DNA of 64,000 nucleotides from assembly GCA_964474205.1 (NCBI GenBank), contig CAYYRW010000006.1, forward strand, positions 143,772-207,771, given 5' to 3'. The DNA is from an uncultured Nitrospirales bacterium. GTDB lineage: Bacteria; Hydrogenedentota; Hydrogenedentia; Hydrogenedentales; CAILVY01. Shown here piece after piece: positions 1 through 53,318 of this stretch. Under the pieces are notes generated by a model, which was not told the DNA's origin, ran no database searches, and saw nothing but the letters and a program-made list of their open reading frames with translations. A program made the translations under genes and the position numbers. Every line of letters starts with the position of its first letter. Within the stretch, counting starts at the first letter, position 1.

Positions 1-1342
1 AATCGCGGTTCACATCCAGGCCGAAGCGGGTCTGATAGGCGAGGTCGAGGTTGACGCGTTGTTTGATCAATATGCCCACCCCCATGGTCACGCCAAAGAA
101 GCTATCGGGTTTCCCGGACCCTTTTTGCATGCGGACAGCCTTTTTATTGTTTTTCCCGGTGGCGGGTTCCTGATCATAAAAGAGCCCGCCGCGCACGCTC
201 CAGAGCTGGTCCATGGTTTCCTGCGGTTCTTTCGGCAGAAAGACATATTCGCCGCCGAGCCGTACGGTATACGTGGGCTTGAAATGGGTTCGTTTCCACG
301 GGAGTTCCCTGTTGCTGAAATCCACGAGGGAAAACTTCCGGCCGCGTTCGTCGGTGACGTAAAAACGGTTCCAATCGGTCCGGGTGACGTCCATCGAGAG
401 CATGAACCGGTCATTGAACCGGTAGGCGGTGCCCACGGCGAATGAAGCGGGAAAAGTCACGTGGCGGCGTTCGTGGGCCCGTTTCCGGGCAATTTTCGAA
501 AAACCCGCGTAATCGCTGGAGGGATACATGATTTGATTGGTCACGCTTTTCTTGAAGTAGTTGACGTTTCCTTTGAAGGAGGAATCATAGCGCAGGCCAA
601 TGCTCCATTTGTCGATGGGATTCCATAATGCGCCGAGGGTGACGTTTTCCCCGGAAAAATCCTCGTAGTATTCCTTGGAGCGGGAATAACCATACCCGGC
701 AATGCCGCTGAACATGGAATGGGAACGTTGCTTGGTGGTCTGTTCCCAGCGGTTTTCATTCAGGAAGGTGCTGCGCCAGAGATTCAGCGCCACGCCCACC
801 GAGAGCCGCTGCGTGATCTCGAAGGCGGCGGCGGGTGTGATGGCGCTCAGGCTGCCGCTTTGCCGGAAATCAAAATGTACGCGGTCCGTAAGTTTTTCAT
901 CGAACCGGTGCCAGTTAAAATTCACGGCGCGCGTGAATTCGTATTTTTTCTGGTAGCTCAGCGAGACGCAAACGTTGCGCCCCAACACCAAAAAGGGCAA
1001 CGGATAGGCTGCGCTGAAAAAGTTGATACCCAGGGTGTCGCTGTAATGCCGAGAATCAAATTCACTGTGCCCCTCCGCCTTCAGAATATCCACCACCCCG
1101 CTGTACTCGCCCACCAGCGAAATCTCCGGCTTCTCCAACTGTACCAGCCCCGCCGGATTCCATGACGCGGCCGTCGCATCGTCCGCCACGGCCACAAAGG
1201 CGTCCGCCATGCCCGCCGCGCGCGCACCGGAACCCACGGGCGAAGGGGAAAGCGAAAACTCCGCCTCCTGGCCCGCGGCCCAGGGCGTCATCAGGAGCGT
1301 GAGCAAGGCCCACGCCGCTATGCTCCGGTTATTTGGTGACAA
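1..1342 (-). CDS. FadL/OmpP1/TodX-family outer-membrane channel for hydrophobic compounds (3' end truncated by the window edge)
   Basis: Reverse translation shows a signal peptide (LSPNNRSIAAWALLTLLMTPWAAGQEA), then GARAAGMADAFVAVADDATAASWNPAGL, the classic FadL-family N-terminal motif. Beta-strand-like text such as DKWSIGLRYDSSFKGNVNYF and FFGVTMGVGILIKQRVNLDLAYQTRFGLDVNRD continues to position 1. The start is probably TTG at 1342; the frame opens after an in-frame TAG. It overlaps the stop of the upstream gene by 14 nt. Confidence 0.7.
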   Translation of the reverse strand, partial: MSPNNRSIAAWALLTLLMTPWAAGQEAEFSLSPSPVGSGARAAGMADAFVAVADDATAASWNPAGLVQLEKPEISLVGEYSGVVDILKAEGHSEFDSRHYSDTLGINFFSAAYPLPFLVLGRNVCVSLSYQKKYEFTRAVNFNWHRFDEKLTDRVHFDFRQSGSLSAITPAAAFEITQRLSVGVALNLWRSTFLNENRWEQTTKQRSHSMFSGIAGYGYSRSKEYYEDFSGENVTLGALWNPIDKWSIGLRYDSSFKGNVNYFKKSVTNQIMYPSSDYAGFSKIARKRAHERRHVTFPASFAVGTAYRFNDRFMLSMDVTRTDWNRFYVTDERGRKFSLVDFSNRELPWKRTHFKPTYTVRLGGEYVFLPKEPQETMDQLWSVRGGLFYDQEPATGKNNKKAVRMQKGSGKPDSFFGVTMGVGILIKQRVNLDLAYQTRFGLDVNRD

Positions 1343-3380
1343 CGTACTGCCCCACTTCTATAGGTAGTTCGGCGGGAGGCTGATTTTCCGCCGGTGGCTT
1401 CATTTCGAGCGTGCAAAATTGCGGCCCCACGCCGTTCACCAGCCCCTCACCGATAATGACGGGTTTGTCGCCCAACACAGCGCCGGTGGTTGGGTCTTTT
1501 ACCGCTTCCGTCCGGTACACAAGGCATTTCAGGCTTTCGCGAAGCCCCTGGTTTTCTTTCAAATCACAGGTGACTTCCGGCGCGGCCCATTCCAGCACCT
1601 TGCCGCGCACACGGGGGAATTCTTGCGTCAACCGCACCCCCAGATCCTCGATCAACCGGCCCAGTTCCTTGTACGGTCCCGCCACATCCACACGCGGCGC
1701 GACCCGCACTCCCGTTTCCGTGCTGCTGCCCTCGAGCACGATCTCGATGGAGTCCTGGTCCCTCCGGATGCGCGCGGCCAGCATCACATCGGCGGGCACC
1801 AGCTTGCCCAATTGCAGCTTTCCTTTTTCCGAGGACAGCGCCGAGGAAAGCTCCTGTTCCGCAAGGATGCTTTTGAGCAAATCGCGGTCGACCAAGGTAA
1901 AACGTTTTTGCACCGTGCGAGCACCCGCCAATTCGCTCAAAATATATTCCGTATCCTGCATCGTTCCCGGATTTTTCGTTTCCGTAACATTTCCCAGAAA
2001 CGCCAATGCAAGCTTCCCTTTTGTCATCTCAATTTCCGTCGGGGAACGCAACACGGTTTTGCGCGCCTCGCCCGAGCGGCCGTTGGAATCCGAGGCCGAG
2101 GCCTGTATCGGGTTCTCTCCCTCTTCCAGCCGCACCCGGCGGCTCAGGTGGACATTCGCACGGCCGGGCACAATGGGAATCGCTTCACCGTTCAAACTGA
2201 CCTTATCAACGACGGTGGTGGTGCGCACGTCCATCGCCACGACAATCTCTTCCATGAAATATTGCTGGCCATCCTGGAGATTGTTCAACGCCACCGTGAT
2301 GGCCCCGCTGGAATCCGGCGTCACCCCCAACACCATCGACAGGCCGGATGCGATCATATTGAGCATTCGCGAACCAAAGGGAAACGGGGAAGAAACATTG
2401 CGCTGTGCCGATGCAGGACCTGGAATCTCGCCCCGGGTGATGTTGCCCAATCCGTCTTCACACTCATACATAAGCGGAGTGGTCATTTCCTGCGCTGGGA
2501 TGTCCAGTACAAACGTGGTTACCCCGTTCTCCCGGGTCAAAGCGGCTTCTTTTCCACCCACCCGGAACGCCTTCACACTGGTCCGGTCAACCGCCGCGCC
2601 CCGCAGCACGCCGGGCAAGGTCAACGGCTCATCAAAACTCAACGCGGGGCCTTCCACATCCAGTATCACCGGCACATGGGCCGCAGAAGATTTTCCAAGA
2701 AGGTCCGTGGCGGTGATCTCGATATCATTCTGCCCCGGTTTCAGCGCCACCTGTTGCCGGAACGAAATACTGGGGCCGGAAACTTTAATATCCACCGGTG
2801 CGCCGTTCACGGCAATGCCCGCCACAAAGGTGTCATCCCGGACGGTCCCGGCCACTTCCAGTTCCATGGCCGAAACCGTGTTGGCGGTTTCCTGGATTTC
2901 GATTACCGGCGGCGTGGCATCGGCCCCGCTCTTTTCCAGCAGCCGTTTGCGCGATTCGTTGAGATAATAGGCAGCGCGCGCCGAAAATCGCTGTTTCAAG
3001 CTGAGTTCGAGTTGGGCGGCACCCGCGGAATACTGGTTTTGATGATAGAGCGCGACGCCCAATTCCCGATGCGGGAAATATTCCGGCACGAAATGCAGAC
3101 CATAGGTGCGCGGCCACAGTTGATCCTTGTTCCGGCCTTTGAGCGCGCTTTCCAGATCGCGCTGCGCCTCCGGGTAAAATCCGCCTTCCAGATAGGAACG
3201 TCCGCGTTCATAATAATTCCACCACCGCCCCCGGAAGCGTCCTTCCGTCACGCCATAACGCACCCCGTCCCGCACAAACTTTTTTTCGTCCTGCCGGGAG
3301 AACACGGCGCATCCCGGCACGAAGGTGGTGAGCAGAACCGCCGCAAGACAGCAGAACACGGTATGGCGGTGAAAATTCAT
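1329..3380 (-). CDS. Lipoprotein-like secreted protein with N-terminal TPR-like region, Ig-like middle and C-terminal CsgG/LpoB-like domain
   Basis: 683-aa ORF. The signal peptide has a lipobox-like end (LLTTFVPGC). The C-terminal region reads FLGNVTETKNP...TLVDRDLLKSILAEQELSSALSSEKGKLQLGKLVPADVMLAARIRR, the CsgG/LpoB-type periplasmic module. The ATG overlaps the kinase stop (ATGA at 3377-3380). Confidence 0.75.
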   Translation of the reverse strand: MNFHRHTVFCCLAAVLLTTFVPGCAVFSRQDEKKFVRDGVRYGVTEGRFRGRWWNYYERGRSYLEGGFYPEAQRDLESALKGRNKDQLWPRTYGLHFVPEYFPHRELGVALYHQNQYSAGAAQLELSLKQRFSARAAYYLNESRKRLLEKSGADATPPVIEIQETANTVSAMELEVAGTVRDDTFVAGIAVNGAPVDIKVSGPSISFRQQVALKPGQNDIEITATDLLGKSSAAHVPVILDVEGPALSFDEPLTLPGVLRGAAVDRTSVKAFRVGGKEAALTRENGVTTFVLDIPAQEMTTPLMYECEDGLGNITRGEIPGPASAQRNVSSPFPFGSRMLNMIASGLSMVLGVTPDSSGAITVALNNLQDGQQYFMEEIVVAMDVRTTTVVDKVSLNGEAIPIVPGRANVHLSRRVRLEEGENPIQASASDSNGRSGEARKTVLRSPTEIEMTKGKLALAFLGNVTETKNPGTMQDTEYILSELAGARTVQKRFTLVDRDLLKSILAEQELSSALSSEKGKLQLGKLVPADVMLAARIRRDQDSIEIVLEGSSTETGVRVAPRVDVAGPYKELGRLIEDLGVRLTQEFPRVRGKVLEWAAPEVTCDLKENQGLRESLKCLVYRTEAVKDPTTGAVLGDKPVIIGEGLVNGVGPQFCTLEMKPPAENQPPAELPIEVGQYVVTK

Positions 3381-5830
3381 TGCGATGAACCGTCCTGCGA
3401 TAGCGGTTCCTGCACATACCAGCCGGTATCCGGGGTATTGCCCAGTTTCGCGGCATCAACGCCCGAAAGAATTACTTTCGAGGTGGAGCCGCCTGGCATA
3501 TCCACGGTTGCCAGGGCCTCTTTCATGGGCGGTGCTTCGGGATCGGGCAACACTTCCAGTTTCATTCCGGGAGTGACGCCCTGCTTTGTGCCAATGTTAA
3601 TCTCCGGGCCGTTCGCCCCCTGGTACACACGGCCCCGCACGGGATAGGCCTGTGCGACGGCGCGCCAGATGGCCCTGGCGGCATCGTCCACCACCTGCTG
3701 TGCATTTTCATGCCCGCCCAAATCCAAGGCGGGCACGGCCACCGGCACGGACGTTTCCACATCATCAATCTTAAAGGTGAGTTTCTCCAGGCCATCCACC
3801 TTGGTTATGCGGCACTGGATCACCAGGCGCGCCCCAACGATTTGGCCCAAACGCAACCGGTTGGCGCCTGAACTCAACATGCCGGAAAGCTCTTGCTCGC
3901 CGAGAATCTCATTGATCAATTCACGGTCCACCAGTTTCATGGAGGTTTCCGCGTCCAAGCGTTCGCCCAGCCACTGAGGCAGCAGGTCCAGCAGGCCCGA
4001 TTCCATCGCAAAACGGCTTTGTTTTGCTTCCACGGGCAACACGAAAAAGCTTAGGGCACGGCTGGTCCACGGATCACTTGCATTCTCCGGCGCCGACTGG
4101 CTATCCATCATCTGACGGATATGTTGCACCGATTGCCGCACTTGTTCACGCCGGGAATCATCCAAGCGGCGCGCAAGTTCCGCCGAGTAAGCCTGCGCCA
4201 CGGCGGAACCATCCGGCACCCCGCTGGCCGCAAGCTGCTCGAAGATGGTTTTGGCGTCGCTGAATTTTCCAAGGCGGTAATACGCCTGGCCGAGGGTTTG
4301 CAGTGCCTCGCCATATTGCCATTTGAATTGAAAGGCTTCTTCCTTGAGCCCCTTCAGCAGACTGGCCGTTTGTTCATATTCATTTTTCATGGCGGCGATT
4401 TGGGCGCGCAGTGAATTTAGGTACTGTGAACCGGCATTGCCCATGCCCGAAAGGACGGATTCCGCGGCTACACCGTCCTTTTCAAACGCCACGGCGGCTT
4501 CGCCTTCCGCGCGTAACAGGGGGTCCGCAATGGGCTTCAACACGGCGGCGGCCTCTTCCAGTTTTCCCTCACGCATCAAGGCCATGCCCAAGCCATACGC
4601 CACGGAAGCATCCTTGGGATTCTCCTTAAGCAATTGTTGATATTCACGCTCCGCACACTCGAGATTCTTCTTTTCCAAACAATCCCGTGCCTTCGCCAGG
4701 GCTGCTCCGGAACGTTTTCCGGGTTCCTCGACAATGCTCGCCGCACGAATAACCAACAGGATGGCGGCGGTGATCAGTAACGCGGTCCCCACCAACACCA
4801 GATACCGCCACCGTTTCTTTGCGGGCGGCGCGGGCGGCGCATTGATCGTAATGGGCGGCACCATTCCCTGACGCTCAATCGCCTGCAACGCCAAGCGCAA
4901 CCGGCGCGCAAACTCTCCCATGGTTTGGAACCGGTTTTCAGGTTTGTGGGCAATGGCCTTCTCCACAATATCGAGAAGGCCCTCCGGGAGATCAGGGCGG
5001 CGTTCCCGCAAGGGAACATGGTCACCCACCCGGATTTTCCGCAGGATTTCCCGGACCCCCGGCGCTTCAAAGGGCCGCCGTCCGCAAATCAGTTCATAGA
5101 GCGTTACCCCGAGCGAAAAAATGTCCGAACGCGCATCCAAGGGATCGCCATCGGCCTGTTCGGGAGACATATAGGGCGGAGAACCGCTGATATCGCCTTC
5201 AATGGTGAAATCAGAGCCGGAAGGCAGGCGTGCAAGCCCAAAGTCGGTGATTTTTGCCTTTTTCGTGTTGGGTTCCAACAGGATATTTGCCGGCTTGATG
5301 TCGCGGTGCATGATACCCTGCTGGTGGGCTTCGTACAAGGCTTCCGCGCATTCCGCGGTGATGCGCAAGGCATCCAACAGTGTCAACCCCTCCGGATTTT
5401 CCTCCAGAAGTTGATCCGCGTTGCCCTCGACGTATTCCAGGACGAAATAACACCGGCCTTTATGTTCGCCCCATTGAAAAATGTCCACGATGGAAGGATG
5501 CTTGCTGAGCGCCGCGATGGCTTTCGCTTCGCGCTCGAACATGGCACGGGCCTTCTCGGACATTTCATGGTTCATGAACTTAATGGCCACCTGCCGTTCC
5601 AGGGCTTCATCCCGCGCCTTGTAAACGGTTCCAAAGCCTCCCGCGCCCAGCTTGTGAAGGATGCGATAGTTGCCAATGCATTCGTTCAGCAACGCGTCGG
5701 ATACTTCGCTGATGGAAATGGAAGGCTCCGAGGCGGCCGCGCTCAATCCTTCCGGCGAATCGGAACTTTCCATATGTGAGGTCGGATCATCCGGCCTTTT
5801 CTTTGAAGAATCATTTTCCCTTTGTGACAT
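3377..5830 (-). CDS. Hanks-type Ser/Thr protein kinase: cytoplasmic kinase domain, one TM helix, periplasmic TPR region and C-terminal CsgG/LpoB-like domain
   Basis: Kinase motifs are present: LGAGGFGTVYKA (G-loop), AIK, HRDIKPANILL, DFGLARL, SPEQ. A TM helix (WRYLVLVGTALLITAAILLVI) is followed by TPR-like repeats. The C-terminal segment KLVDRELINEILGEQELSGMLSSGANRLRLGQIVGARLVIQCRI is paralogous to the C-terminus of the downstream gene. Confidence 0.9.
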   Translation of the reverse strand: MSQRENDSSKKRPDDPTSHMESSDSPEGLSAAASEPSISISEVSDALLNECIGNYRILHKLGAGGFGTVYKARDEALERQVAIKFMNHEMSEKARAMFEREAKAIAALSKHPSIVDIFQWGEHKGRCYFVLEYVEGNADQLLEENPEGLTLLDALRITAECAEALYEAHQQGIMHRDIKPANILLEPNTKKAKITDFGLARLPSGSDFTIEGDISGSPPYMSPEQADGDPLDARSDIFSLGVTLYELICGRRPFEAPGVREILRKIRVGDHVPLRERRPDLPEGLLDIVEKAIAHKPENRFQTMGEFARRLRLALQAIERQGMVPPITINAPPAPPAKKRWRYLVLVGTALLITAAILLVIRAASIVEEPGKRSGAALAKARDCLEKKNLECAEREYQQLLKENPKDASVAYGLGMALMREGKLEEAAAVLKPIADPLLRAEGEAAVAFEKDGVAAESVLSGMGNAGSQYLNSLRAQIAAMKNEYEQTASLLKGLKEEAFQFKWQYGEALQTLGQAYYRLGKFSDAKTIFEQLAASGVPDGSAVAQAYSAELARRLDDSRREQVRQSVQHIRQMMDSQSAPENASDPWTSRALSFFVLPVEAKQSRFAMESGLLDLLPQWLGERLDAETSMKLVDRELINEILGEQELSGMLSSGANRLRLGQIVGARLVIQCRITKVDGLEKLTFKIDDVETSVPVAVPALDLGGHENAQQVVDDAARAIWRAVAQAYPVRGRVYQGANGPEINIGTKQGVTPGMKLEVLPDPEAPPMKEALATVDMPGGSTSKVILSGVDAAKLGNTPDTGWYVQEPLSQDGSSQ

Positions 5831-5901
5831 TTACTCGTCTCTCCATAATCGCCACTCACACCACCCCGTATTGCTCCCTGCAAAGACGGTGTGCGTATTA
5901 T

Positions 5902-8900
5902 CTACCGTTTACCCGTATTTTTCCAGCCCAGTAAAATCATTAGACTCAAACAACCGATGAAAAGGTCACCCAGGAGCCGCTGCCAATCCTTCAAGGTGAA
6001 ATCAGTCTCATTGCATTGGCAACTGAAGGGCGGTTGAACTTCACCCTCGGTTTCGCCCTCCAGTGCGCCCTCCTCCGCGCCTTCGATAATGCCTTCGTCA
6101 TCACCTTCCATGATGCCTTCGAGAACATCCCCCTCGGATGAGCCTTCGGTTTGGCCTTCAACGAGCATGCCCTCTTCTTCGCCTTCGCCTTCAGCTTGGC
6201 CTTCAACGAGCATGCCCTCTTCTTCGCCTTCAGATTGGCCTTCAACGAGCATGCCTTCCGCTTCACCTTCGGTTTGGCCTTCAACGAGCATGCCCTCTTC
6301 TTCGCCTTCGCCCTCGGTCACCCCCTCGCCCTCTTCCGCTGAACCTTCGGAGGGCATGCCTTCCACCGAACCACCCGTAACCGTTACGGAGCCGTTGACG
6401 GCCTGTACGGGAATTTGCGTGCCGTTGAGCTCAGGCGCGATCAACTGGAGGGGAGAGGATTTTCCGGCGGCATCGGCGGCGATTTGGAAGTGAAGCACGG
6501 CCAGGGTGCCCGAACCGCTCAGGGCATAGGCGGAAGATGCGGATATCAGCACTTCACCGGCGAAAGTGTTTAGGTTGGGGGCTCCCCACGAGGAGGTGAG
6601 GCTGCCGTTCTCAAAACTCGCATAGGTGAGCACGGTTTCATCAAAGGTAATGTCCAGGAAATACGCGCGCACATCGGTGGCGTCATCGAGTGCCACGGGT
6701 ACCTCGATTTGTGTTCCAGGCTCCCCGGACAGCGCGGGCAGGGTGAGTTGGCGTTCGCCTATATTCAGCGCATTCTTTGCACTACTTTTGCAGTCCGTAT
6801 CCGGGCCGAACTCGTTGCCATCGCAGTCCGCGGGCAATTGCGCCGTAATGCCCACCTTCCATTGGAGGATGTCCGAGCCGTCCAATTCATTCAGGGCGCC
6901 ATCACCGTTCACATCGGCAGCCTCGGGATAGGCCGGCCGGACCACGCCGGGATACGCCGTGAACTCGGTAATGAGACGCACGCGCCACTGGCCAATGGCC
7001 GAGGCATCCAGCGTGCCCACGCGCGCATCGCCGGTCAACTCACCCCAGCGGTAGCTGCCGCCCGAAGAAGGTTCGAGGGCAATGTCGCGTTCCGTGGCGG
7101 CTCCCGCGCTGACCAGCACATATTCGCTGGCGTCCTGATAGCCGTCCTTGGAGGCCATCAGCATGTACGTGCCTTCCGCCACATTTGGCAGGAAGTATTC
7201 GCCTCTCGCGGTGGTACTCATTGAAGTCCCATTCGGGCTAATCGTCACTTCCGCGCCTTCCACCGGCGTACCGGTGGCGAGGTCCTTGATCACGCCGGTA
7301 ATATAGCCGGGGAGGGCGGGATTATGATTGTCCACGATGAAGTGCCGCACCATGGAACCCGTGGGGCTGGCGCCATACACATCCACGGGGATCACACGCC
7401 AATAATAGGTTTGACCGTCTTGCAGGCCGCTCATGGATACCGCCGTTACCGAGATCCCTTCTTTGAACCTTAATCCGGTGCTAAAGGAGTCATCCTCGGC
7501 AATCTCCAGGCGGTAGGTCAACGGATCGCCATCCGGGTCGGTTACGGAAGTCCACGCGAAGAAACTTGTGCTGTACACGCTCATCCCGTCACCGGGATAA
7601 TTCAGCGTGGTGAGGGTGGGCGGACGATTGGTGGCGGATTGCCGGTAGATGGTCGTCATCAGGAAGGAACTGGTTTCCTTGGTAACGCCGTCCTGCACAT
7701 AGTAGAACACATTGTAAGTGCCCGGCGCGTCAAAAGTGGTTCCGAAGGTTTCCCATCGGAAATACCCGGTGTCCAAATTGGAGATGGCGGTCTCATAGTC
7801 GAACGAGGGCAGATCAATGTATTTCTGCGAATCTTCATTCGCCGGGTCCACCGTGGTGGAACCCGCATATTCGGGCGTTTTCACCTCGATCCACGCGGTA
7901 TGGCCCGTCGCCGGGATATCCGTGGCTTTTGCGAACAACTGCCCCACGGGATCCGCCGGACCCAGCATCAGGGTTTGTGTGGAGGTGATCCACCCGACGG
8001 AACCGGTGGCGTTCACGCCATAACCCAGCACCATTTCATGGGCCAGCGAACCATCATTGCCGGAGGCAAACGCCAGGTGTCTCGCTTCGCTTCCTGTGCC
8101 ATCCCCGTTGTCATCCAATAGCGGATGTTGTTTGAACAGGGCGGAAGCTCCATTGCTTTTGGTGGCGGTGTAGGTCAGGGTCTTGTCCGTGGCGCGTTCG
8201 AAGGATTCTTTTAAGGTTTTGCCTTCCCGCGCATTGCGGAAAAATTCGGTGGTGAAGGCTTCGCCGTCCCGCACCAAGCCCAGTTTTTCCAGCACGCCGC
8301 GATGGGACACTTCATTTTTCGAGGTGCTGGTAATCACCACGCGATTCGCCCCAGAGACCGCCTCGACGAAGCTTCCCGAATAACACGAACCCATAACAAG
8401 CGCCACCTTCTGGTTGCGCGACGCCGTGTTCAGGCTGGCTTGCAGGAAGTTCAAATACCCCGCCAATTCCGACGGCGTGATGTACCGGGTCTCATTGTAA
8501 CTGCCGGAATATACATAGAATTTACTCGGGCCGCCATGATCGATCAGCACGATATACAAGGGGGCGGGGGAGGTGTTCATTTGCGTTACGGCCCAATTCT
8601 GTATGGCCCCCGTCACATCCGCCTGGGACGGCGTGCGATCATCCACAAAAATATCCGCCGCCGGTTGCGCCGGGCCTTCGCGGAGGTAGTAAATGTCTTC
8701 GTGGGCAAAACCCCGGTCGCGGAATGCACGATAGACATAATCGCCGGTTTTGCGATGTTCGTCCATTCCTTCGCCGGTGGCGTCCAATTTTCCCACCACA
8801 ACGATGGCGTAGCCGGCCTTGTCTTTGACCGTCAAGCGCACGGATTCGGGCTTGTCGTAACCTTCCGACGTGGTGGCCAGCAGATTTTGACTGCCCTCAA

Positions 8901-11900
8901 ATTCCACCAGGAACTGCCACGTGCCCGGACTGCTAAAAGTGATGCCTGCCGCTGTGAATGCTGAGGCGGGAAACACAACCTTGCCGCCCGCGCCGGTGGT
9001 TCCCGCCACGGGCCCCGCGGAAGAGGCATCGGGTTTCTTCATCCACAAATTCACCGTTTGCCCTGTCACCAAAGTCTGCAATTGTGCAGGAAGCGGCCCG
9101 CTCAATACCGCCTCCGCTTGCAGGTCGGAAAACCCCATCGGGACCGAGGAGGCATTAAGGCTCAGGGTAAGTGTGGGCTGGGCCTTCTTCACGGCAAAGG
9201 GTGCCCAATTGCTTATCGCGTTTTGGTAATACACATCGCCCGGCCAGGACGCCTGAATCAGCCAGGGGGAGCGTCCCTCGGAGGCTTCCGTGGGATAAAA
9301 CAGGCGTGAATATGCGGTTCCGCCGATGGCTACTGCTTCCGGGAAATCGGTGGCATGTACCCCGGAGGGCGAGTTCGTGGTAAAGCTGACAATGGTTCCA
9401 ACGGGGCTTTTTCCCACAATACTGCCCGAAACCGTCAAGGTCTGCCCCAAGGTGATTTCCGAGGCGCTCAGGATACAGGAGATCGAAGAGGGTTCAAGGG
9501 TAATTTCTCCGTCCTGAATAATAGTGCATTCCGGCGAGGTGGCGGGAGTGCCATCATCCGCCCCATCGTTCGGAGTCACTACGCAATACCACAAATCACC
9601 CACGGTAGTGTCGTCCGCGAACACCCGGCTGCGTGTCGTCTGGTTAAACGCGCTGGTGAATGTGCTGTACGACCCGCCCGAAGGCTTGCGCCACCATGCA
9701 AATGCATACGTAACGGGGTCTCCATCCGCATCCTGGCTGGCGGTCTGAATGGAGCATTCCAGGGTGGTGCTGTCATTCAATTGTGCGGGAAATGTGAGTA
9801 CGGGTGCGCCCGGCGGGGTGTTTACAATCGTCACCGAATCCTCGCCCGGATCGGAATAGTCGCCGCCGTAGTATCCTCGCACGATGCAGGTCCAGGTATC
9901 CCCACGGCTCGTTTCAGAGGCATTTAATGTGTCCACAAGACCAGATTGCGGGCCATGTACAATCGGGGTTCCACCATTGCTCCAGGAGAATTCATACTGC
10001 ACGGAATACGGCGCGCTGGGGGTTGTCACTGTACATACAAGATCATCCGAACTTGTCGGAAAATCCGGAGTGATTTCTACCACAGGCGCTGTCATTGGCC
10101 CCGCTTCGGATGAACGGGTAATTCTGAAACCTATGAAGTAACGATGATCGCCAGGTGTTGTGTGGTTTCGAAAAGCGGAACGGCACGAGTCCCAACTACT
10201 AGGCCAACTTCCACCACGCATGGTACGATCTGATCCGAATCCAGGCCCAATGGGATCGATTTGACTGCCTGTTCCATAACTATCATACCAGTCATGACAC
10301 CATTCATTGACGCCTCCACTCATATCGTAACAACCCGCTGGACTGAAACTGTCAACAGTCGTAATACTGCCGTTTGGACTAATATTCACTCCATTAAACC
10401 ACCCCGCCGGGGAAGTATATGGTTCGGATACCATGCCCATGGGATTAACGTGATTTGGATTGGCATCGTAATAGTTACAGCGGGCCTTACCCGTGAGTGT
10501 GTCGCTTTGGAATCCATAAATCCAATGTGTCGATCCCGAGGTATTCCAACCGGCGGCATATTCCCATTCGGCTTCTGTTGGTAATCGATAACCTCCAGAT
10601 GCAACTGAAAGCGCCCATGTGGTTAGGGTGTAGCAAGGGGTTAACCCCTCCATTTCACTCAACCAGTTACAGAAACATACTGCTCCAAACCAAGAAACCC
10701 AGACCACAGGATGATTCACCATCGAGTATCCATCGCGTGTTTTTGGCGCGAATGTGCCATTCACGAATTGTACATCGCTTGTGCTTTCCGACACCGCTGC
10801 AACCAGTTGCAGACTCCCTTCATCGACATATACATCGCCGCTGGTATAGGCCGCGCCCGTTGAATTCTTGAGATACCCCCGCGCATTGGCCCAATTAAGG
10901 ACTGTGGCGAACTGGCCGTTGGTGATCTCGAACTTGCCAATTTTATAGGGACTCAGCGTCACCTCATGACGCGGCAATTCGTCCGCTCCACCATAGGCGC
11001 CATCGTCCCCATCATCCCGCCGGCCCATCGTGAAGGTTCCCCCAGCCACATCCACCATCGGTATGTGAATAGGCGACCGCGCTACGCGGAAACCCGTGTA
11101 ATTATCGCGGTAGTTCTGTGGCAACCCGCCGGGGCGGTAGGCTGTACGGCTATTGCTTTTAGCGTTTCCCCAAGACCCGCCGCGCATTTCCCTTCCTGTA
11201 CCCGAGACCGGCCCTGTGGGGTCCGTCATGGACCCGCCGCTGTAATACGTGTCAAGGTGTTTATCGTGACACCATTCCCACACATTCCCTGACATGTCAT
11301 AACATCCTGCTGGCGAAGGTGAATCCACCGTTGCGATACTTCCATTGGGACTGACATGAACACCATCAAACCAACCAGCGGGGGAGGTGTAGGGGAGTTC
11401 GGTGAGACCAAGAGGATTTACACCCGAAGGACTCCCATCCCCATAACTACAATGGGCTTTGCCTGTTAGGGTATCCGTCATCATCCCGTAGATCCAGTGC
11501 TTACCGGCATCGGAATCCCATGCGGCCGCCCGTTCCCATTCCGCCTCTGTTGGCAACCGGTATCCATCAGGGTAGGGAGTAATGATCTCCCATGTTTTTA
11601 GATCATAACAGGGTGTCAGCCCCTGGGCCTCGCTTAACCAGTTGCAAAACGCCACGGCGCCATGCCAGGTCACCGTAGTGACAGGATGGTGCTCCATGGA
11701 GTAGGTATCGCGGGTTTTCCATCCGAATGCGCCGTTTGTATAGGTGATCGGGCAATAAGCATGAGTTAAAAATAGGATTTGCTGCCGGTCACCTTCATCC
11801 ACATACACATCACCACTGGAATAGTAGCTGCCATCCGAGTTTTTCAAGTACCCGTGCCCTTTGGCCCAGTTCAGCACCGCCGCAAACTGCCCGTTCGTCA

Positions 11901-14295
11901 CTTCAAACTTACCAATGTTATAGGCGCTCAAGGTCACCTCATGCCGTGGCAACTCTGTGGTCTGGCCATAGGTCCCATCATCCCCATCATCCCGCCGCCC
12001 CATCGTGAAGGTGCCGGAGGAGACGGGAACATTAGGCATCAAGTCCAATGTAGTGACGAAAATGTCATAATCTGTACCCGTAATTCCACCAAGGTTTTCA
12101 TTGGCGGAGTAAATCGCAACCCAGTGCCCCCGGGCATCTGAAGCGATGGAAGCGGTACGATACGGTCCCGTTACCGCATCCTGATTGAGAGATTGGGCCA
12201 AGTACCATGTCGTCCCGCCGTCTTCAGAACGCGACCAATGCAGATCGGCATTCTCATGATTCCATACAACGACATAGTTGCCGGCCTCATCATAATCGAT
12301 GGACAAAGGATAATAGTCATCGGTATCTATTGAATCTCTCTGATTAAGCTGTTTAGGAGTACTCCATGTGATCCCATTGTCCAGGGATTGAGCCATAGCC
12401 ACATCAATGTTCGCATTCCAACGTTGGCTACTCGACCATAGGACGAACCAACGGCCATTACCATCGGTCACAATATTTTGCTGGCTGCCAAATCTATCAT
12501 AGGCTATATCCGTTGCGCCATCGGTATTGACATGCCCCGGTGCGGACCACGTTATTCCATTGTCAACTGACCGCGATGACAGGACATCGTAGTCACTTCC
12601 GGCTATTCCCTCTGGACTGTTAGGGGTTGTCCAAACAACAACCCAAGTCCCTTTTCTATCCGTTGTGATACTGGGAGGATCATCCTCCTCGGTATCCGTT
12701 GATGCCCAAGGACAGAGCGCGGCTGGGCTGGACCATGTACTGCCATTGTCATCGGATCGTGAATACGCGATATCCGTATCCGTCCCCCAGCGGCGGCAAT
12801 GAAACACAACAACCCAACGCCCATTGCCATTTGTGGAGATTTGTGCACTTCCATCATACATGCCACCTGTGGTAATCGCTGATTTGGTACTCCATGTCGC
12901 CCCATTGTCAGTCGATCGTGAAAAAATCACGCCATTATTCCCGTCAGGGACTGCTATCCACCCGCTCCAAACAACAATCCATGTTCCTTTTCCATCTGTG
13001 GCAATCTTCGGATCTCTATGATCCCGATAGTCTGTAGGAGTTCCTCCCGCATTGATAAGAACGGGCGTTGACCATGTATTTCCGCCATCGCTCGAACGAG
13101 CCGCTAAAATGTTATGTTGTGTGTAGCCATTACTGTCGTAGAAATCATCAGCACAAGCCCAAACAGCCACCCAGTTGCCGTTGTGGTCGCTTTCAATATC
13201 GACCTCACGGTCCATAATATCTGAAGCGTCCAAAGCCGCGCGCGCATTTAGTGATCTCTGATGCGACCATTCAAGGCTTGACGACGCAAACTCATATGCG
13301 CCCATATCGGGTCCGCCGCCCCACGTGCGGAGCGTGCCTTCGATGTCTGTGAGAGGTGCGCCGGTGGCGGTGCCAGTATCGATACACGGCGACCCGGCGC
13401 ACAAGCGGAGATCTGTCGTGCTCGCAAAACGCGGATTCTCATTTTTGTTGCCCGTGCCGGTGTATCCGCCTTGCACATCGGAGTAGGTGATTGCCGTACT
13501 GCCGCCGGTATCGACGATCTCTGGAGTAAGACTGTTCCAAAGAATACAGTTTGTCGCCGTAGTGTTAGCGGCATTGTGGTTATGTATTGCGCTGCCGTCA
13601 ACGCTACTGTTGCCGTAAAAAGAGCAGTTCATGATTTGAGGCCAGGCGGCAGGCTGATTGTTAAACAACCCGCCGCCTGAATTTGCAGTGTTATTCAGAA
13701 AGACACAGTTCACCAATGCCGGAGAGCAGGCATAGTTATACATGCCACCGCCCACCGCCGCGGCATTACCTTTGAAGCAGCAATTAGTCACGATGCAGGA
13801 GGCAAGATTGTTATATATTCCTCCGCCTCTGTCATTTTCTCCGCCACCGTTCGCGTTCCCGCCGGTGACGGTGAATCCGTCAATACCCGAATCCTCCGCT
13901 CCGAGGACAACGTGGTAGGCGGCGGAACCCGCACGGGCAGTACTGCCGTCGATAATGGTGGTATGGGCACTCAAATCCCGCTCCGAGCGTTGCGTTTCGT
14001 TACCGGCAAATCCGCCATAGAGCGAAACGGTTGATTTAAGTTCAAGTGCGCCGCTCGCATGCGGACGCGTTTCGCTGTAGGTTCCTTCCGCGACCCAGAC
14101 CTCGCCGCCCCCGGCCGCGGAGGCGGCATTGACCGCCGGTTGGATCGTTTTGAAGGCGGTTGCCCACGATGTGCCGTCTTCCGTGCCGGTGTTGTCCTTG
14201 TCCACGTACCAAGTGGCGGCATTGGCATTCACACCGAGAAAAGCCGCCAACAGCAGAATAGCACCCGTGGCTAAATTACGTGCAAGCGTTAACAT
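5902..14295 (-). CDS. Giant secreted mosaic protein with nine modules: beta-helix, BNR propeller, two FGE-sulfatase domains, Ig/FN3, clan-CD peptidase, dockerin, cohesin, acidic repeats and a C-terminal TM anchor
   Basis: The uninterrupted frame runs 5902..14364 (2820 codons). The likely start is ATG at 14295 (MLTLARNLATGAILLLAAFLGVNANA signal peptide, AAGGAT Shine-Dalgarno 7 nt upstream). The six-frame track's 14364 start adds 23 non-signal residues. Modules, in track aa numbering: beta-helix ~50-360 (GGNANGGGENDRGGGIYNN-type turns); BNR/Asp-box propeller ~385-770 (seven SxDxGxTW boxes, e.g. SRSTDNGATWS, SRSDDNGSTWS, SRSVDNGITWS); FGE-sulfatase 1 at 778-1098 and FGE-sulfatase 2 at 1104-1418 (RLPTEAEWE, GNVWEWCHD, RGGSW); clan-CD peptidase ~1850-2080 (LIDHGG...MGSCYSG); carboxypeptidase-regulatory-like domain ~2355-2430; dockerin ~2440-2505 (DVNGDGALNELDGSDILQW); cohesin-like ~2535-2665; acidic EGMLVEGQ repeats 2667-2777; TM anchor LFIGCLSLMILLGWKNTGKR. 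Confidence 0.85.
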   Translation of the reverse strand: MLTLARNLATGAILLLAAFLGVNANAATWYVDKDNTGTEDGTSWATAFKTIQPAVNAASAAGGGEVWVAEGTYSETRPHASGALELKSTVSLYGGFAGNETQRSERDLSAHTTIIDGSTARAGSAAYHVVLGAEDSGIDGFTVTGGNANGGGENDRGGGIYNNLASCIVTNCCFKGNAAAVGGGMYNYACSPALVNCVFLNNTANSGGGLFNNQPAAWPQIMNCSFYGNSSVDGSAIHNHNAANTTATNCILWNSLTPEIVDTGGSTAITYSDVQGGYTGTGNKNENPRFASTTDLRLCAGSPCIDTGTATGAPLTDIEGTLRTWGGGPDMGAYEFASSSLEWSHQRSLNARAALDASDIMDREVDIESDHNGNWVAVWACADDFYDSNGYTQHNILAARSSDGGNTWSTPVLINAGGTPTDYRDHRDPKIATDGKGTWIVVWSGWIAVPDGNNGVIFSRSTDNGATWSTKSAITTGGMYDGSAQISTNGNGRWVVVFHCRRWGTDTDIAYSRSDDNGSTWSSPAALCPWASTDTEEDDPPSITTDRKGTWVVVWTTPNSPEGIAGSDYDVLSSRSVDNGITWSAPGHVNTDGATDIAYDRFGSQQNIVTDGNGRWFVLWSSSQRWNANIDVAMAQSLDNGITWSTPKQLNQRDSIDTDDYYPLSIDYDEAGNYVVVWNHENADLHWSRSEDGGTTWYLAQSLNQDAVTGPYRTASIASDARGHWVAIYSANENLGGITGTDYDIFVTTLDLMPNVPVSSGTFTMGRRDDGDDGTYGQTTELPRHEVTLSAYNIGKFEVTNGQFAAVLNWAKGHGYLKNSDGSYYSSGDVYVDEGDRQQILFLTHAYCPITYTNGAFGWKTRDTYSMEHHPVTTVTWHGAVAFCNWLSEAQGLTPCYDLKTWEIITPYPDGYRLPTEAEWERAAAWDSDAGKHWIYGMMTDTLTGKAHCSYGDGSPSGVNPLGLTELPYTSPAGWFDGVHVSPNGSIATVDSPSPAGCYDMSGNVWEWCHDKHLDTYYSGGSMTDPTGPVSGTGREMRGGSWGNAKSNSRTAYRPGGLPQNYRDNYTGFRVARSPIHIPMVDVAGGTFTMGRRDDGDDGAYGGADELPRHEVTLSPYKIGKFEITNGQFATVLNWANARGYLKNSTGAAYTSGDVYVDEGSLQLVAAVSESTSDVQFVNGTFAPKTRDGYSMVNHPVVWVSWFGAVCFCNWLSEMEGLTPCYTLTTWALSVASGGYRLPTEAEWEYAAGWNTSGSTHWIYGFQSDTLTGKARCNYYDANPNHVNPMGMVSEPYTSPAGWFNGVNISPNGSITTVDSFSPAGCYDMSGGVNEWCHDWYDSYGTGSQIDPIGPGFGSDRTMRGGSWPSSWDSCRSAFRNHTTPGDHRYFIGFRITRSSEAGPMTAPVVEITPDFPTSSDDLVCTVTTPSAPYSVQYEFSWSNGGTPIVHGPQSGLVDTLNASETSRGDTWTCIVRGYYGGDYSDPGEDSVTIVNTPPGAPVLTFPAQLNDSTTLECSIQTASQDADGDPVTYAFAWWRKPSGGSYSTFTSAFNQTTRSRVFADDTTVGDLWYCVVTPNDGADDGTPATSPECTIIQDGEITLEPSSISCILSASEITLGQTLTVSGSIVGKSPVGTIVSFTTNSPSGVHATDFPEAVAIGGTAYSRLFYPTEASEGRSPWLIQASWPGDVYYQNAISNWAPFAVKKAQPTLTLSLNASSVPMGFSDLQAEAVLSGPLPAQLQTLVTGQTVNLWMKKPDASSAGPVAGTTGAGGKVVFPASAFTAAGITFSSPGTWQFLVEFEGSQNLLATTSEGYDKPESVRLTVKDKAGYAIVVVGKLDATGEGMDEHRKTGDYVYRAFRDRGFAHEDIYYLREGPAQPAADIFVDDRTPSQADVTGAIQNWAVTQMNTSPAPLYIVLIDHGGPSKFYVYSGSYNETRYITPSELAGYLNFLQASLNTASRNQKVALVMGSCYSGSFVEAVSGANRVVITSTSKNEVSHRGVLEKLGLVRDGEAFTTEFFRNAREGKTLKESFERATDKTLTYTATKSNGASALFKQHPLLDDNGDGTGSEARHLAFASGNDGSLAHEMVLGYGVNATGSVGWITSTQTLMLGPADPVGQLFAKATDIPATGHTAWIEVKTPEYAGSTTVDPANEDSQKYIDLPSFDYETAISNLDTGYFRWETFGTTFDAPGTYNVFYYVQDGVTKETSSFLMTTIYRQSATNRPPTLTTLNYPGDGMSVYSTSFFAWTSVTDPDGDPLTYRLEIAEDDSFSTGLRFKEGISVTAVSMSGLQDGQTYYWRVIPVDVYGASPTGSMVRHFIVDNHNPALPGYITGVIKDLATGTPVEGAEVTISPNGTSMSTTARGEYFLPNVAEGTYMLMASKDGYQDASEYVLVSAGAATERDIALEPSSGGSYRWGELTGDARVGTLDASAIGQWRVRLITEFTAYPGVVRPAYPEAADVNGDGALNELDGSDILQWKVGITAQLPADCDGNEFGPDTDCKSSAKNALNIGERQLTLPALSGEPGTQIEVPVALDDATDVRAYFLDITFDETVLTYASFENGSLTSSWGAPNLNTFAGEVLISASSAYALSGSGTLAVLHFQIAADAAGKSSPLQLIAPELNGTQIPVQAVNGSVTVTGGSVEGMPSEGSAEEGEGVTEGEGEEEGMLVEGQTEGEAEGMLVEGQSEGEEEGMLVEGQAEGEGEEEGMLVEGQTEGSSEGDVLEGIMEGDDEGIIEGAEEGALEGETEGEVQPPFSCQCNETDFTLKDWQRLLGDLFIGCLSLMILLGWKNTGKR
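6033..6366 (-). repeat. In-frame imperfect tandem DNA repeats (~42-48 nt units) inside the giant CDS, encoding an acidic (E/G-rich) EGMLVEGQxEGExEE tail
   Basis: The unit ggccttcaacgagcatgccctcttcttcgccttc recurs four or more times on the plus strand (6130-6330). Translated on the minus strand it gives GMLVEGQTEGEAEGMLVEGQSEGEEEGMLVEGQAEGEGEEEGMLVEGQTEG. Confidence 0.7.
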
Positions 14296-14356
14296 ACCCT
14301 TATCCTTTAATCGTTGTCGTTGGTTTTGGGCTGCATCCCATAACCAAAGACTACTT

Positions 14357-15346
14357 TTATTCATTGCATACCGTCCTATCGTCTTCCCCCGCCCTCCGAG
14401 CTATGGAGGACAAGTTGCGGGAATGACGGAAATTTCGCAAACTCATGCAAATGAGCAAGACAGCAAGAATGATCCACACGGGCGGTCCCAGCGGCATGGG
14501 ATGTTCCCTGACAATTCGCACCAGCATGGATTCATAGACGACGGGCAACGCGCCGTCATTCAGTTCAGCACTGAAAATTTCGATGTAGGTGGTTTCGTCG
14601 AGAGGCGCGTCCTCGCGCACACGAAATCGCAAATAGATCACGGTGGCCGAGCCGGAAAATGGCTGGGTGCTATATGCGCCGACGGTGATGCGTCCATTGA
14701 TGGCGGCATTGACCGTGGGCGCGCCCCAGCCCGCAGGCAAGGCGCCGGGGGTGGTTCCGAGGAAATCCAGGAGGTTGGGCGCGTAGGAAAGGGAGAACAC
14801 CAATCCGAGCACGCCCCCGGCATCACGTAATTCTATTGGCAGGGTGAATTCATCGCCGGGCAGGAGGTCCAGGGATACCGGCATCCCCAACACCGCAATG
14901 TCCGCCACGGTCACCGTGCCGTTCTGGGCTGTGGCGACGATAGCCCCGTCGTTGAGTTCCACCTTTCGGAAAAATACCGTGGAAACGGCGCCCAACAGTG
15001 CGGTGGATTTTACCCGGAATTGAATCTGTACAAGGCTGCCCGCGCCCGCGATGGGAACGGTACTGTAACTTGCCACGCTGCATCGTCCGGCACTGGAATT
15101 GAGGATCGGGGCGGGCCAACTGGCCGTGAGCAGGCCGTTCTGGGCGTTTATCACCTCAAAATCAGTGGAATACCCCAGTTCAAAGTAATACCCGAGCACC
15201 CCGGATACGGCGGTAACGGTGATGGGCAGGGTAAACGTCTCTCCCGGCGCCGCCACGATGGAATCCGGTACACTCACACTGACGGTTGCTCCGGCCAATG
15301 AAGCAACCACCCACATGCCTAATGCCAACAACCCACTTGCCCGCAC
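14357..15346 (-). CDS. Membrane-anchored protein with two cohesin-like domains (scaffoldin/anchor-like)
   Basis: 329 aa with a signal peptide (MRASGLLALGMWVVASLAGA). Two repeats resemble the cohesin module of the giant protein (VSVPDSIVAAPGETFTLPITVTAVSGVLGYYFELGYS... and MPVSLDLLPGDEFTLPIELRDAGGVLGLVFSLSY...). A C-terminal TM segment (PPVWIILAVLLICMSL) is followed by basic residues. It sits 61 nt upstream of the giant gene. Confidence 0.65.
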   Translation of the reverse strand: MRASGLLALGMWVVASLAGATVSVSVPDSIVAAPGETFTLPITVTAVSGVLGYYFELGYSTDFEVINAQNGLLTASWPAPILNSSAGRCSVASYSTVPIAGAGSLVQIQFRVKSTALLGAVSTVFFRKVELNDGAIVATAQNGTVTVADIAVLGMPVSLDLLPGDEFTLPIELRDAGGVLGLVFSLSYAPNLLDFLGTTPGALPAGWGAPTVNAAINGRITVGAYSTQPFSGSATVIYLRFRVREDAPLDETTYIEIFSAELNDGALPVVYESMLVRIVREHPMPLGPPVWIILAVLLICMSLRNFRHSRNLSSIARRAGEDDRTVCNE

Positions 15347-26069: not shown

Positions 26070-27473
26070 ATGCGCGCAAACAAGAAATGCATCATGATAT
26101 TGTTGGTGTTGGGGTTGCTGGCGGGGTGCTCGACCGGGAAATGGGAACGCCTGCGCCGGGAACACGCGGAGTCTTTTCAGCGGGATATTGCGGCACTGAC
26201 CGGGAAAGCATTGGCCGGACGTGACACGTTGCATCTTCAAGAGTGCATTGATATCGCGCTGGCCAACAACCTTTCCGTGAAGCAGGCGGAAATCCGGCGG
26301 AAAATGGCCAAGTTGGAACGGCAAGCCGCGTTCGCGAACTTTCTTCCCACGATTCAATTCGATCTCAACTATACCTCCCTGGACCGGGCCCCCAAAAGCG
26401 TGATGTTCGGGTTGTTGGCCGCGCAGGTCCAGGACCGCGAAGTGCTTACCACGGAGTGGAACGCGCAAATGCCGATTTTTATCCCGGCCACGTGGCTCGT
26501 GTATGACATGCGGCGGCGGGGAGTGGAAATCGCGGACCTCGTGCGGGAGTACACCCGCCAGCAGATTGTTTTGCAGATCACGGCGGGCTTTTTCCACTGC
26601 AATGTAATCGAACATTCCCGGGAGGTATTGGAGAGCCAATTGGCCGCCGCAGAGCAATTGTGTGCTGAAACGCGCTCCCTGGCCGGCGAAGGCTTGATCA
26701 TGCCGTGGCAGGCGGAGCAGGCGGAGTTGCTGGCATTGTCCCGGCGCACCTCCCTGAAACAAACGGACCGAGCGCGGGATCAGGCGGTTGCCAATCTGTT
26801 GGTGGCCATGGGGCTTTCACCGTTGGCGGCGATGACGCCTTTCCCGGAAACGCCCCTCGAAGCGCCGGCGGGAACTCCCGAAGAATTGATCGTGCAGGCG
26901 CTGATCAATCATCCGCAGTTGAAAATTTCCGACAGGGTGATTGCCGTTCGCAAAGATCAGGTGTTGATGGCGGTTGCGGAGTTTCTTCCGCGTCTGGCGG
27001 GGTTCGCCGGGCGCAGCCATACCTCGAATAGTTTTATGAAATATCCGGATGTGACCGCATTGGGGCTTGCGGGCATGATGACCATTTTCGACGGGCTTGC
27101 CAATGTGCGTGAATATCAATTGGCCCGTCAGCAACGCAAAGAGGCCTATGTCCAACGGGAAGAAGCCTGTTTTTCCCTCATGTTGTCCGTGTTGCAGGCG
27201 TGGCGCAACCTGGAAGACGCGCGGGCCGCGCTCACCCTGGCCAAAAAGAATCTTGAAGTGGCTTCCGGACGTGTGAAGCAGATTGAGTCGCAATGGCATG
27301 AAGGGCTGGTGCAGGATTCCGCCCGGATGACCCTTGCCGCGGAACGGGACGAAGCGGAGTTCAACGTACTGGCCGCGCAATTCAGCGAACAGGTGCGCAT
27401 TGCGGTGTTGCGCGATCTTATTTCCGCGCCGGGCCTTGTGGAATCAAAACAGCCGGATACCGCCAACCCATAA
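26070..27473 (+). CDS. TolC-like outer-membrane efflux protein (OMF), lipoprotein
   Basis: Lipoprotein signal MRANKKCIMILLVLGLLAGCST, then coiled-coil/beta-barrel repeat text typical of OMF proteins. Confidence 0.85.
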   Translation: MRANKKCIMILLVLGLLAGCSTGKWERLRREHAESFQRDIAALTGKALAGRDTLHLQECIDIALANNLSVKQAEIRRKMAKLERQAAFANFLPTIQFDLNYTSLDRAPKSVMFGLLAAQVQDREVLTTEWNAQMPIFIPATWLVYDMRRRGVEIADLVREYTRQQIVLQITAGFFHCNVIEHSREVLESQLAAAEQLCAETRSLAGEGLIMPWQAEQAELLALSRRTSLKQTDRARDQAVANLLVAMGLSPLAAMTPFPETPLEAPAGTPEELIVQALINHPQLKISDRVIAVRKDQVLMAVAEFLPRLAGFAGRSHTSNSFMKYPDVTALGLAGMMTIFDGLANVREYQLARQQRKEAYVQREEACFSLMLSVLQAWRNLEDARAALTLAKKNLEVASGRVKQIESQWHEGLVQDSARMTLAAERDEAEFNVLAAQFSEQVRIAVLRDLISAPGLVESKQPDTANP

Positions 27474-27541
27474 TTCACACGAACGAGCTTATGCGCCGGA
27501 GGAGCCTGTCGGCCCGGAAGGCGTCAAGGAGGTACGATAGG

Positions 27542-37394: not shown

Positions 37395-37652
37395 GACAGC
37401 CTCCCATTCCTTCACAGGCGAACATGTTCCAGGCGGAAGTGCCGCCGAGTGCGCCCTGTTTTGCCTGCCCCGGAATCTCCTCGGTTCCCGGCGCATTCGA
37501 TCACTGCAATTTTCATATTTTGCGCAGTATCGGCGCAAGAACCGAAAACCACTGAAATATATTGCATTCCCGGAAAACTTATGGAAAAATACGGTTGAAC
37601 CGTGTAAAGAGCAAAAAATTGGCAGAAATATCAAACCTTGGGAGTGGTTGCC

Positions 37653-53314: not shown

Positions 53315-53318
53315 AGCC

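Follow-up and report, generated by a model that had tools for sequence, protein, structure and literature searches.

Gene organisation of the cassette

The window analysed here is a stretch of 64,000 nucleotides (assembly GCA_964474205.1, contig CAYYRW010000006.1, positions 143,772 to 207,771) from an uncultured bacterium that GTDB places in the Hydrogenedentota. At its left end we found a cassette of three packed minus-strand genes, which encode a receptor-type Hanks Ser/Thr kinase, a lipoprotein and part of an outer-membrane barrel of the FadL family. The kinase gene (3377..5830, stop codon included; 817 aa) was recognised from its open reading frame and a Pkinase match (E=2.9e-49). The lipoprotein gene (1329..3380, stop codon included; 683 aa) has a start that overlaps the stop of the kinase gene, and the barrel gene (1..1342; 447 codons) leaves the window on the left. 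The open reading frames bear out this trio, which a first-pass annotation had proposed from the letters alone, and all three peptide strings that it quoted are found in the translations. The ATGA overlap that it described between the kinase stop and the lipoprotein start (3377-3380) can be read directly in the sequence. Its second overlap, of 14 nt between the lipoprotein and barrel genes (1329-1342), exists if the barrel begins at the TTG codon at 1342 and disappears if a later start is used. When translation is taken from the TTG, the product has a good signal peptide, MSPNNRSIAAWALLTLLMTPWAAG, and this choice agrees with the overlapping gene calls in two related loci, L002 and L004; against it, the gene caller used for a third locus, L001, picked a later barrel start.

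The catalytic domain of the kinase (residues 55-302; 4925..5668) covers positions 1-253 of the 263 in the Pfam Pkinase profile (PF00069), scores 168.3 bits against a gathering score of 31.7, and retains the motifs GAGGFG, VAIK, HRDIKPAN and DFG intact. A hydropathy scan located a single transmembrane helix at residues 343-361 (4748..4804; mean Kyte-Doolittle value 2.69), immediately preceded by the sequence KKRWR, which by the positive-inside rule places the N-terminus in the cytoplasm. Beyond the membrane lie a periplasmic TPR solenoid (residues ~370-577; 4100..4723; Pfam TPR_16 and TPR_19), which is all-helical in the AlphaFold2 model with a predicted local distance difference test score (pLDDT) above 90, and a FlgT-like module (residues 590-807; 3410..4063), in which an alpha/beta domain of the CsgG/LpoB/TolB-N type is followed by a C-terminal beta domain. 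The full-length query recovered about 95 full-length orthologues, assigned to Hydrogenedentes wherever the source gives a name, and a kinase identical to that of the window (P0122) occurs in a Logan assembly; the C-terminal 259 aa gave a single, uninformative match in a word-indexed database.

This layout resembles that of the PASTA Hanks kinases PknB and Stk1, in which a cytoplasmic kinase is joined by a single transmembrane helix to an extracytoplasmic sensor. The window kinase domain aligns to PknB_PASTA_kin across 264 residues, and the kinases of some relatives have FHA-domain readers encoded nearby, as do many bacterial Hanks kinases. However, the window kinase carries TPR repeats and the FlgT-like module instead of PASTA domains, scores 256.7 against the PknB_PASTA_kin equivalog cut-off of 450, and belongs to a diderm host in which it has an outer-membrane partner. 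We regard its periplasmic part as a putative sensor.

The lipoprotein begins with a signal peptide and lipobox (residues 1-24, ...FVPGC; 3309..3380), with a hydrophobic segment at residues 8-26. The lipobox cysteine, Cys24, is kept in at least 90% of 61 relatives, so that of the first-pass description of this protein as a soluble or lipoprotein copy of the kinase module, only the lipoprotein part stands. Its most conserved part (residues 35-151; 2928..3278), delimited from the family alignment and the secondary structure of the model, consists of beta hairpins and TPR-like helices and contains the invariant residues W53, W54, Y57, R83, D86, R91, Y93, G94, H96, F102, P103, R105 and E106. It may be here that the barrel or the TPR region of the kinase makes contact. 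It is followed by an Ig-like beta-sandwich region (residues 159-445; 2046..2906), which is all-beta in the model and matches Glucodextran_B (E=1.1e-12), as do 57 of the 61 family members, and by a FlgT-like module (residues 454-681; 1338..2021) that is a paralogue of the kinase module. Pfam scans of the window protein and its relatives revealed no recognisable lipid-binding domain. The family is large, with at least 299 protein-database matches and 455 relatives among species-representative genomes, labelled as Hydrogenedentota, Desulfobacterota, Nitrospirota, Schekmanbacteria and others. Within it, a subfamily of ~850 aa (P0006, P0038, P0051 and P0057; locus L004:10001-12568) has a tandem duplicate of the alpha/beta domain, which produces the N+M+C arrangement of FlgT itself.

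The third protein is a true member of the FadL family. It matches Toluene_X (PF03349) with E=1.4e-17 and 63.8 bits against a threshold of 29.7, over profile positions 23-380 of 421, and carries the hallmark N-terminal hatch motif GARAAGMADAFVAVADDATAASWNPAGL; both findings bear out the initial description of a FadL/TodX-type channel. Its nearest solved sequence is the transporter-type FadL 3dwo (E=1.5e-10). The window barrel is 85% identical to the 461-aa orthologue in L001, and ~25 C-terminal residues lie outside the window. The top NCBIfam match was BamG (NF053685, E=2.5e-18). Tested against the curated NCBIfam cut-offs (NF053685, NF033709 and NF033710), an identity as BamG or PorV was rejected, the scores being 66.3 against 250 for BamG, 46.7 against 90 for PorV_fam and 18.8 against 250 for T9SS_OM_PorV. 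These proteins are nevertheless instructive for comparison, as FadL-family 14-strand barrels that serve lipoproteins or cargo rather than simple transport; in the BamG-BamH pair, the barrel holds the N-terminal region of a lipoprotein (PMC12611786). The N-terminus of the window barrel resembles that of PorV, whereas its proximity to the transporter-type 3dwo and the lack of adjacent genes for the barrel assembly machinery or the type IX secretion system set it apart from both.

A FlgT-like module shared by the kinase and the lipoprotein

The C-terminal segments of the kinase and the lipoprotein are homologous, as first proposed: BLASTP aligned them over 149 aa with 32% identity (E=1e-11), and an hhalign comparison of the two families matched kinase residues 590-807 to lipoprotein residues 454-681 over 208 columns (probability 98.4%, E=4.4e-15). 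The motif on which the first-pass annotation based its claim is indeed shared, but the extent that it gave was too small, because the common unit is a module of ~220 aa with two domains that extends to the C-terminus of both proteins. The structural part of the claim, an alpha/beta fold like that of CsgG and LpoB, also held when both segments were modelled. The models are confident (pLDDT 84.6 and 90.7), and each consists of a compact alpha/beta domain and then a beta domain, without long hairpins.

Foldseek identified FlgT, of the Vibrio flagellar H-ring, as the top match among solved structures. For the kinase region, FlgT 3w1e ranked first (E=3.8e-8), followed by FlgT 8z5n (E=1.3e-7) and TolB (E=4e-4); for the lipoprotein, 3w1e ranked second (E=3.9e-10) and 8z5n gave E=1.2e-9. 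The TM-scores were low (0.25-0.30) because of the orientation of the multiple domains. Both modules thus have the FlgT fold, with TolB-N-like, CsgG-type alpha/beta structure followed by a small C-terminal beta domain. At the sequence level, the module profile found neither FlgT nor any other relevant protein among the PDB sequences, single lipoprotein or module sequences found no matches at all in them, and the profile of the lipoprotein family found only TsaP (3jc8, E=0.0017) and CsgG (E=1.3). The kinship with FlgT is therefore visible at the level of the fold only; the Pfam family FlgT_C is matched by just 3 of the 61 lipoprotein relatives. FlgT is a periplasmic protein; 26 copies of it assemble into a ring beneath the outer membrane, where it binds the tails of the outer-membrane lipoproteins FlgH and FlgP (10.64898/2025.12.04.692373). 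In the cassette, by contrast, the FlgT-like module is fused to a transmembrane kinase, cyclase or CHAT protein, or to a lipoprotein with TPR-like and Ig-like regions, and flagellar genes were found neither in the window nor in the loci surveyed.

The first-pass annotation had assigned the segments to the fold of CsgG, LpoB and FlgO. The modules share the alpha/beta fold of the wider superfamily of CsgG, LpoB, FlgO and TolB-N and its helix motif, h-V-x-R-x-x-L-x-x-x-L-x-E-Q-x-L-S, and FlgO matches occur among the lipoprotein relatives. In the window, the Pfam CsgG family (PF03783) scores below its gathering score of 20.8 (kinase 13.8 bits, lipoprotein 16.3 bits); 33 of the 61 lipoprotein relatives match it at E<=0.01 (best E=3.4e-15), and the membrane partners of other phyla exceed the threshold (31-36 bits). 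The window proteins align only to profile positions 44-101 and 52-98 of 210, so that neither is a CsgG channel; the fold assignment stands and full CsgG identity does not. There is likewise no sign of the membrane-spanning hairpins of the curli channel. Pfam LpoB (PF13036) has no match in the window proteins, and is matched by 6 of the 61 lipoprotein relatives (best 1.8e-7) and, above the Pfam threshold, by several membrane partners. The cassette also differs from CsgG and LpoB in having neither a curli nor a PBP1B context. An identity as TsaP was rejected, because the profile match covers only the beta domain, Pfam scans of the window protein and its relatives revealed no LysM domain, and there is no secretin nearby. 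The module family as a whole comprises 17,744 representative clusters at E<=1e-3, 2,688 at <=1e-10 and 278 at <=1e-30.

Conservation of the cassette and exchange of its outputs

We used phmmer and Pfam to classify 80 loci, and took synteny counts from the 42 loci in which each flank is 4 kb or longer. A membrane partner that bears the module is present in 40 of these 42 loci, and a FadL-like barrel gene in 37. Gene order and near-zero spacing are unchanged in L001, L002 and L004, and the nearest relatives of the window are metagenome-assembled genomes (MAGs) of Hydrogenedentota; locus L082 is from a MAG of the Geobacteraceae. In at least three such MAGs, two separate kinase-lipoprotein-FadL cassettes lie on different contigs (L013 and L028; L008 and L019; L031 and L074), so that the system is multi-copy within genomes.

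What varies among the loci is the cytoplasmic output of the membrane partner. Among the 80 loci, this output is a kinase in 23, a class III cyclase joined to CHAT in 22, CHAT alone in nine and a cyclase alone in one; the kinase is found in Hydrogenedentota, and the cyclase-CHAT, CHAT or cyclase forms in Desulfobacterota, Nitrospirota and others. Kinase and non-kinase partners have a common chassis of transmembrane helix, TPR repeats and module, and the combination of Pkinase with a CsgG-type domain is detectable with Pfam in some relatives (P0316). A hydropathy scan of 14 non-kinase partners placed a single transmembrane helix between the output and the TPR and module parts in 12 and detected none in the partners of L053 and L054. 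Because a nucleotide cyclase needs cytoplasmic ATP or GTP, this arrangement makes the module periplasmic.

How did the kinase acquire its module? All 21 kinase modules are nearest to the modules of cyclase or CHAT partners (~52 bits) and not to those of the lipoproteins (~20 bits), and we therefore rejected the idea that the kinase had recently received a copy of the lipoprotein module. Instead, partner and lipoprotein were separated by an old duplication, after which a kinase domain took the place of another output on a receptor that already existed.

The genes beside the cassette also differ with the type of partner. First, a divergent FHA-CHAT gene lies directly upstream of the kinase in seven kinase-type loci, and an FHA-sigma54 activator lies upstream of it in two further independent loci; among the loci surveyed, FHA is confined to the kinase type. 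Second, in L080 a complete cyclase-CHAT partner is followed by a gene that combines PilZ, cyclic nucleotide (cNMP)-binding and Pkinase domains. L037, L040 and L045 also have a gene with Pkinase and cNMP-binding domains 3′ of the lipoprotein; in L037 and L040 the contig ends within the partner, and in L045 no partner was seen, so that L080 is the only one of these loci with a complete cyclase-CHAT partner. The 64-kb window itself encodes no FHA-CHAT, FHA-sigma54 or cNMP-binding kinase reader. These arrangements would be three complementary wirings of one pathway: from receptor to CHAT; from receptor-cyclase through cNMP to a kinase; and from receptor-kinase through phosphothreonine to FHA-CHAT or to an FHA transcription factor. 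The matching readers beside kinases and beside the one complete cyclase partner point to a trans-envelope signalling device.

Flanking genes and other features of the window

Upstream of the kinase on the same strand lies a giant gene (region 5902-15346) for a mosaic protein of 2820 aa, which contains BNR/sialidase-like repeats, two FGE-sulfatase domains, Peptidase_C13-like, CarboxypepD_reg, dockerin-like and cohesin domains, acidic repeats of 13 aa (a 39-nt repeat in the DNA, 6142-6310) and a hydrophobic anchor at the C-terminus. A gene for a protein with two cohesins (14357-15346) overlaps and follows it, so that cohesin and dockerin are paired here in a host that is not among the usual bearers of cellulosomes. 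The FGE-sulfatase domain recurs elsewhere: it is fused to Pkinase beside the lipoprotein in two Desulfobacterota loci (L029:15101-17542 and L038:12669-15905) and to five CsgG/LpoB repeats in P0303, and it may indicate a shared ligand or partner.

The gap between the kinase and the giant gene is 71 nt (5831-5901) and not 72 as first counted. The region upstream of the kinase (5831..5925, minus strand), which comprises this gap and the end of the giant gene, includes a Shine-Dalgarno-like GGAG and, at 5925-5897, a sigma-70-like site, TGGAAA-17-GATAAT, which is a consensus match only. A hairpin in the gap lacks a T-run (z=-1.8). The early suggestion that the kinase regulates the giant upstream system is unsupported, although conceivable in the lineage of the window, and was rejected because of this promoter-like site and because the giant gene is upstream only in close relatives (L001), L002 having alaS and L004 an FHA-sigma54 gene in its place.

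Elsewhere in the window, an RND-type efflux operon (OEP, HlyD-type adaptor and AcrB-type pump) and an lptF-lptG pair, at 26070-31827 and 45999-48208, are ordinary envelope genes and confirm a diderm host with lipopolysaccharide. A protein of 1872 aa (37638-43256) combines leucine-rich repeats, six Flg_new_2 domains (InlB B-repeat-like) and two PASTA domains, which are unusual outside a kinase or penicillin-binding protein context. Type I-E CRISPR-Cas genes (cas3, cse1 and a cas7-like CT1975 gene) lie in a block with a GC content of 0.48, compared with ~0.57 elsewhere, and are followed by an array whose repeat, GTTTTCCCCACGCGTGTGGGGATGAACCG, recurs every 61 nt (48455-54728 and 58062-58823). This is probably a horizontally acquired island. 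Just downstream of the array, a 62-nt tandem repeat of ~4 copies with 87% matches (59910-60159) is unrelated to the CRISPR repeat.

A proposed trans-envelope signalling complex

What might this cassette do? The reading that we favour, with somewhat better than even confidence, is that the three genes encode a single trans-envelope signalling complex. Gene coupling, homology of the modules, their fold, the topology of the partners, conservation and domain swaps all speak for it; contact, signal direction and stimulus are inferred. The kinase would be a single-pass inner-membrane receptor, its catalytic domain in the cytoplasm and its TPR arm and FlgT-like module reaching across the periplasm. 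The lipoprotein, predicted to be anchored in the outer membrane and bearing the paralogous module, would be made together with the FadL-family barrel. Beneath the outer membrane, the two FlgT-like modules may bind each other or co-assemble, which we infer because modules of the same fold form the rings of FlgT and CsgG. If something changed at the outer membrane, for which passage of a hydrophobic ligand through the FadL barrel or a perturbation of the complex between lipoprotein and barrel are candidates, the receptor would cluster differently, and clustering would lead the kinase to autophosphorylate. FHA proteins would read the resulting phosphothreonine; in relatives, candidates are the caspase-like FHA-CHAT protease or the FHA-sigma54 activator encoded beside the kinase, and in the lineage of the window the putative reader is not encoded nearby.

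Pairs of an outer-membrane lipoprotein and an inner-membrane protein that reach each other across the periplasm are known from RcsF-IgaA, NlpE-CpxA and LpoB-PBP1B, and LpoB has the fold of the module described here. The cassette differs from these pairs in that its two partners carry paralogous modules, that a dedicated FadL barrel is co-encoded, and that where they use a phosphorelay or a synthase, its outputs are a Hanks kinase, a class III cyclase or a CHAT protease. All of the folds are already known. In a literature search from which most subscription journals were absent, we found no published description of the cassette or of the swapping of outputs, nor any of the kinase sensor and its paralogous lipoprotein, in agreement with the first-pass view that the architecture was undescribed.

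More tentatively, the cassette may be a lineage-specific version of a widespread and undescribed class of trans-envelope receptors that ancestrally switched on a cytoplasmic CHAT protease, a possibility that we consider rather doubtful at present. The coupling to CHAT would be direct, would pass through a cyclic nucleotide or, as in the window, would pass through phosphothreonine read by FHA-CHAT.

Alternative explanations

We considered whether the cassette might sense a hydrophobic nutrient or signal. The FadL barrel would import a compound such as a fatty acid, a hydrocarbon or a lipid-like signal, the lipoprotein would act as its periplasmic receptor or chaperone, and the kinase would sense the loaded lipoprotein and regulate uptake or catabolism, which makes this idea a special case of the signalling complex with a defined stimulus. 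The barrel gives it some weight, being a genuine FadL protein closest to the transporter 3dwo and not to PorV or BamG, and recurring in most of the well-flanked loci (37/42). Nevertheless, we think it unlikely: conserved genes for fatty-acid or hydrocarbon catabolism do not accompany the cassette, whose flanks vary among loci, a caspase-like CHAT protease would be an odd output for nutrient sensing, and the lipoprotein has no recognisable domain for binding lipids.

A second possibility is that the lipoprotein and barrel sense envelope damage or phage attack and activate CHAT, directly or through cNMP or phosphothreonine, to cause cell arrest or death. CHAT is the commonest output of the partners (31 of the 55 classified loci) and persists as FHA-CHAT beside the kinases, several cassettes can occur in one genome (L013 and L028, L008 and L019, L031 and L074), and the shuffling of outputs is of the kind typical of conflict systems. 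The comparison with PADLOC-DB 2.0, however, yielded only generic kinase-domain matches and weak matches for CHAT (BovA) and the cyclase (PycC). The window kinase matches PD-T4-6 and mad6 in its kinase domain only (residues ~50-325), and the lipoprotein, the barrel and the CHAT-module partner have no matches there, so a catalogued anti-phage system was rejected. The neighbours in the window are the giant surface protein and housekeeping genes, with no obvious defence island, and the lipoproteins form a well-conserved family whose distribution is wide instead of patchy. We judge a role in defence or suicide to be decidedly improbable.

Third, the modules might form a structural ring around an outer-membrane apparatus for secretion or display, for instance of the giant neighbour, with the kinase tuning it. 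Both FlgT and TsaP, the top fold matches, are ring-forming scaffold proteins, and the giant cohesin/dockerin surface protein is encoded 71 nt upstream here and also in L001. Even so, we give this proposal very little credence, as that neighbour is conserved in close relatives only, secretin, flagellar or pilus genes adjoin the cassette in no surveyed locus, and the swapping of cytoplasmic enzymes favours signalling over structure. Finally, a chance adjacency of three envelope genes, with a common fold due to domain shuffling, is hardly credible and is already contradicted by the conservation data, since synteny with gene overlaps extends across at least four phylum-level groups at 28-52% protein identity.

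Implications

All of the sources are MAGs of uncultured organisms, and the present value of the cassette is as a generator of hypotheses. What stimulates a bacterial Hanks kinase, and how the stimulus gets to it, is in most cases unknown; the cassette offers a complete candidate pathway with named parts. It also provides a first functional handle on a large uncharacterised lipoprotein family, and the exchange of kinase, cyclase and caspase-like protease on one periplasmic chassis is directly testable. If the proposed complex exists, the fold of FlgT, CsgG and LpoB would be extended from scaffolding and secretion to signalling. If, in addition, the more tentative reading of an ancestral CHAT-activating receptor were true, Hydrogenedentota, Desulfobacterota, Nitrospirota and others would possess a bacterial 'outside-in' pathway that connects the cell surface with a caspase-type effector.

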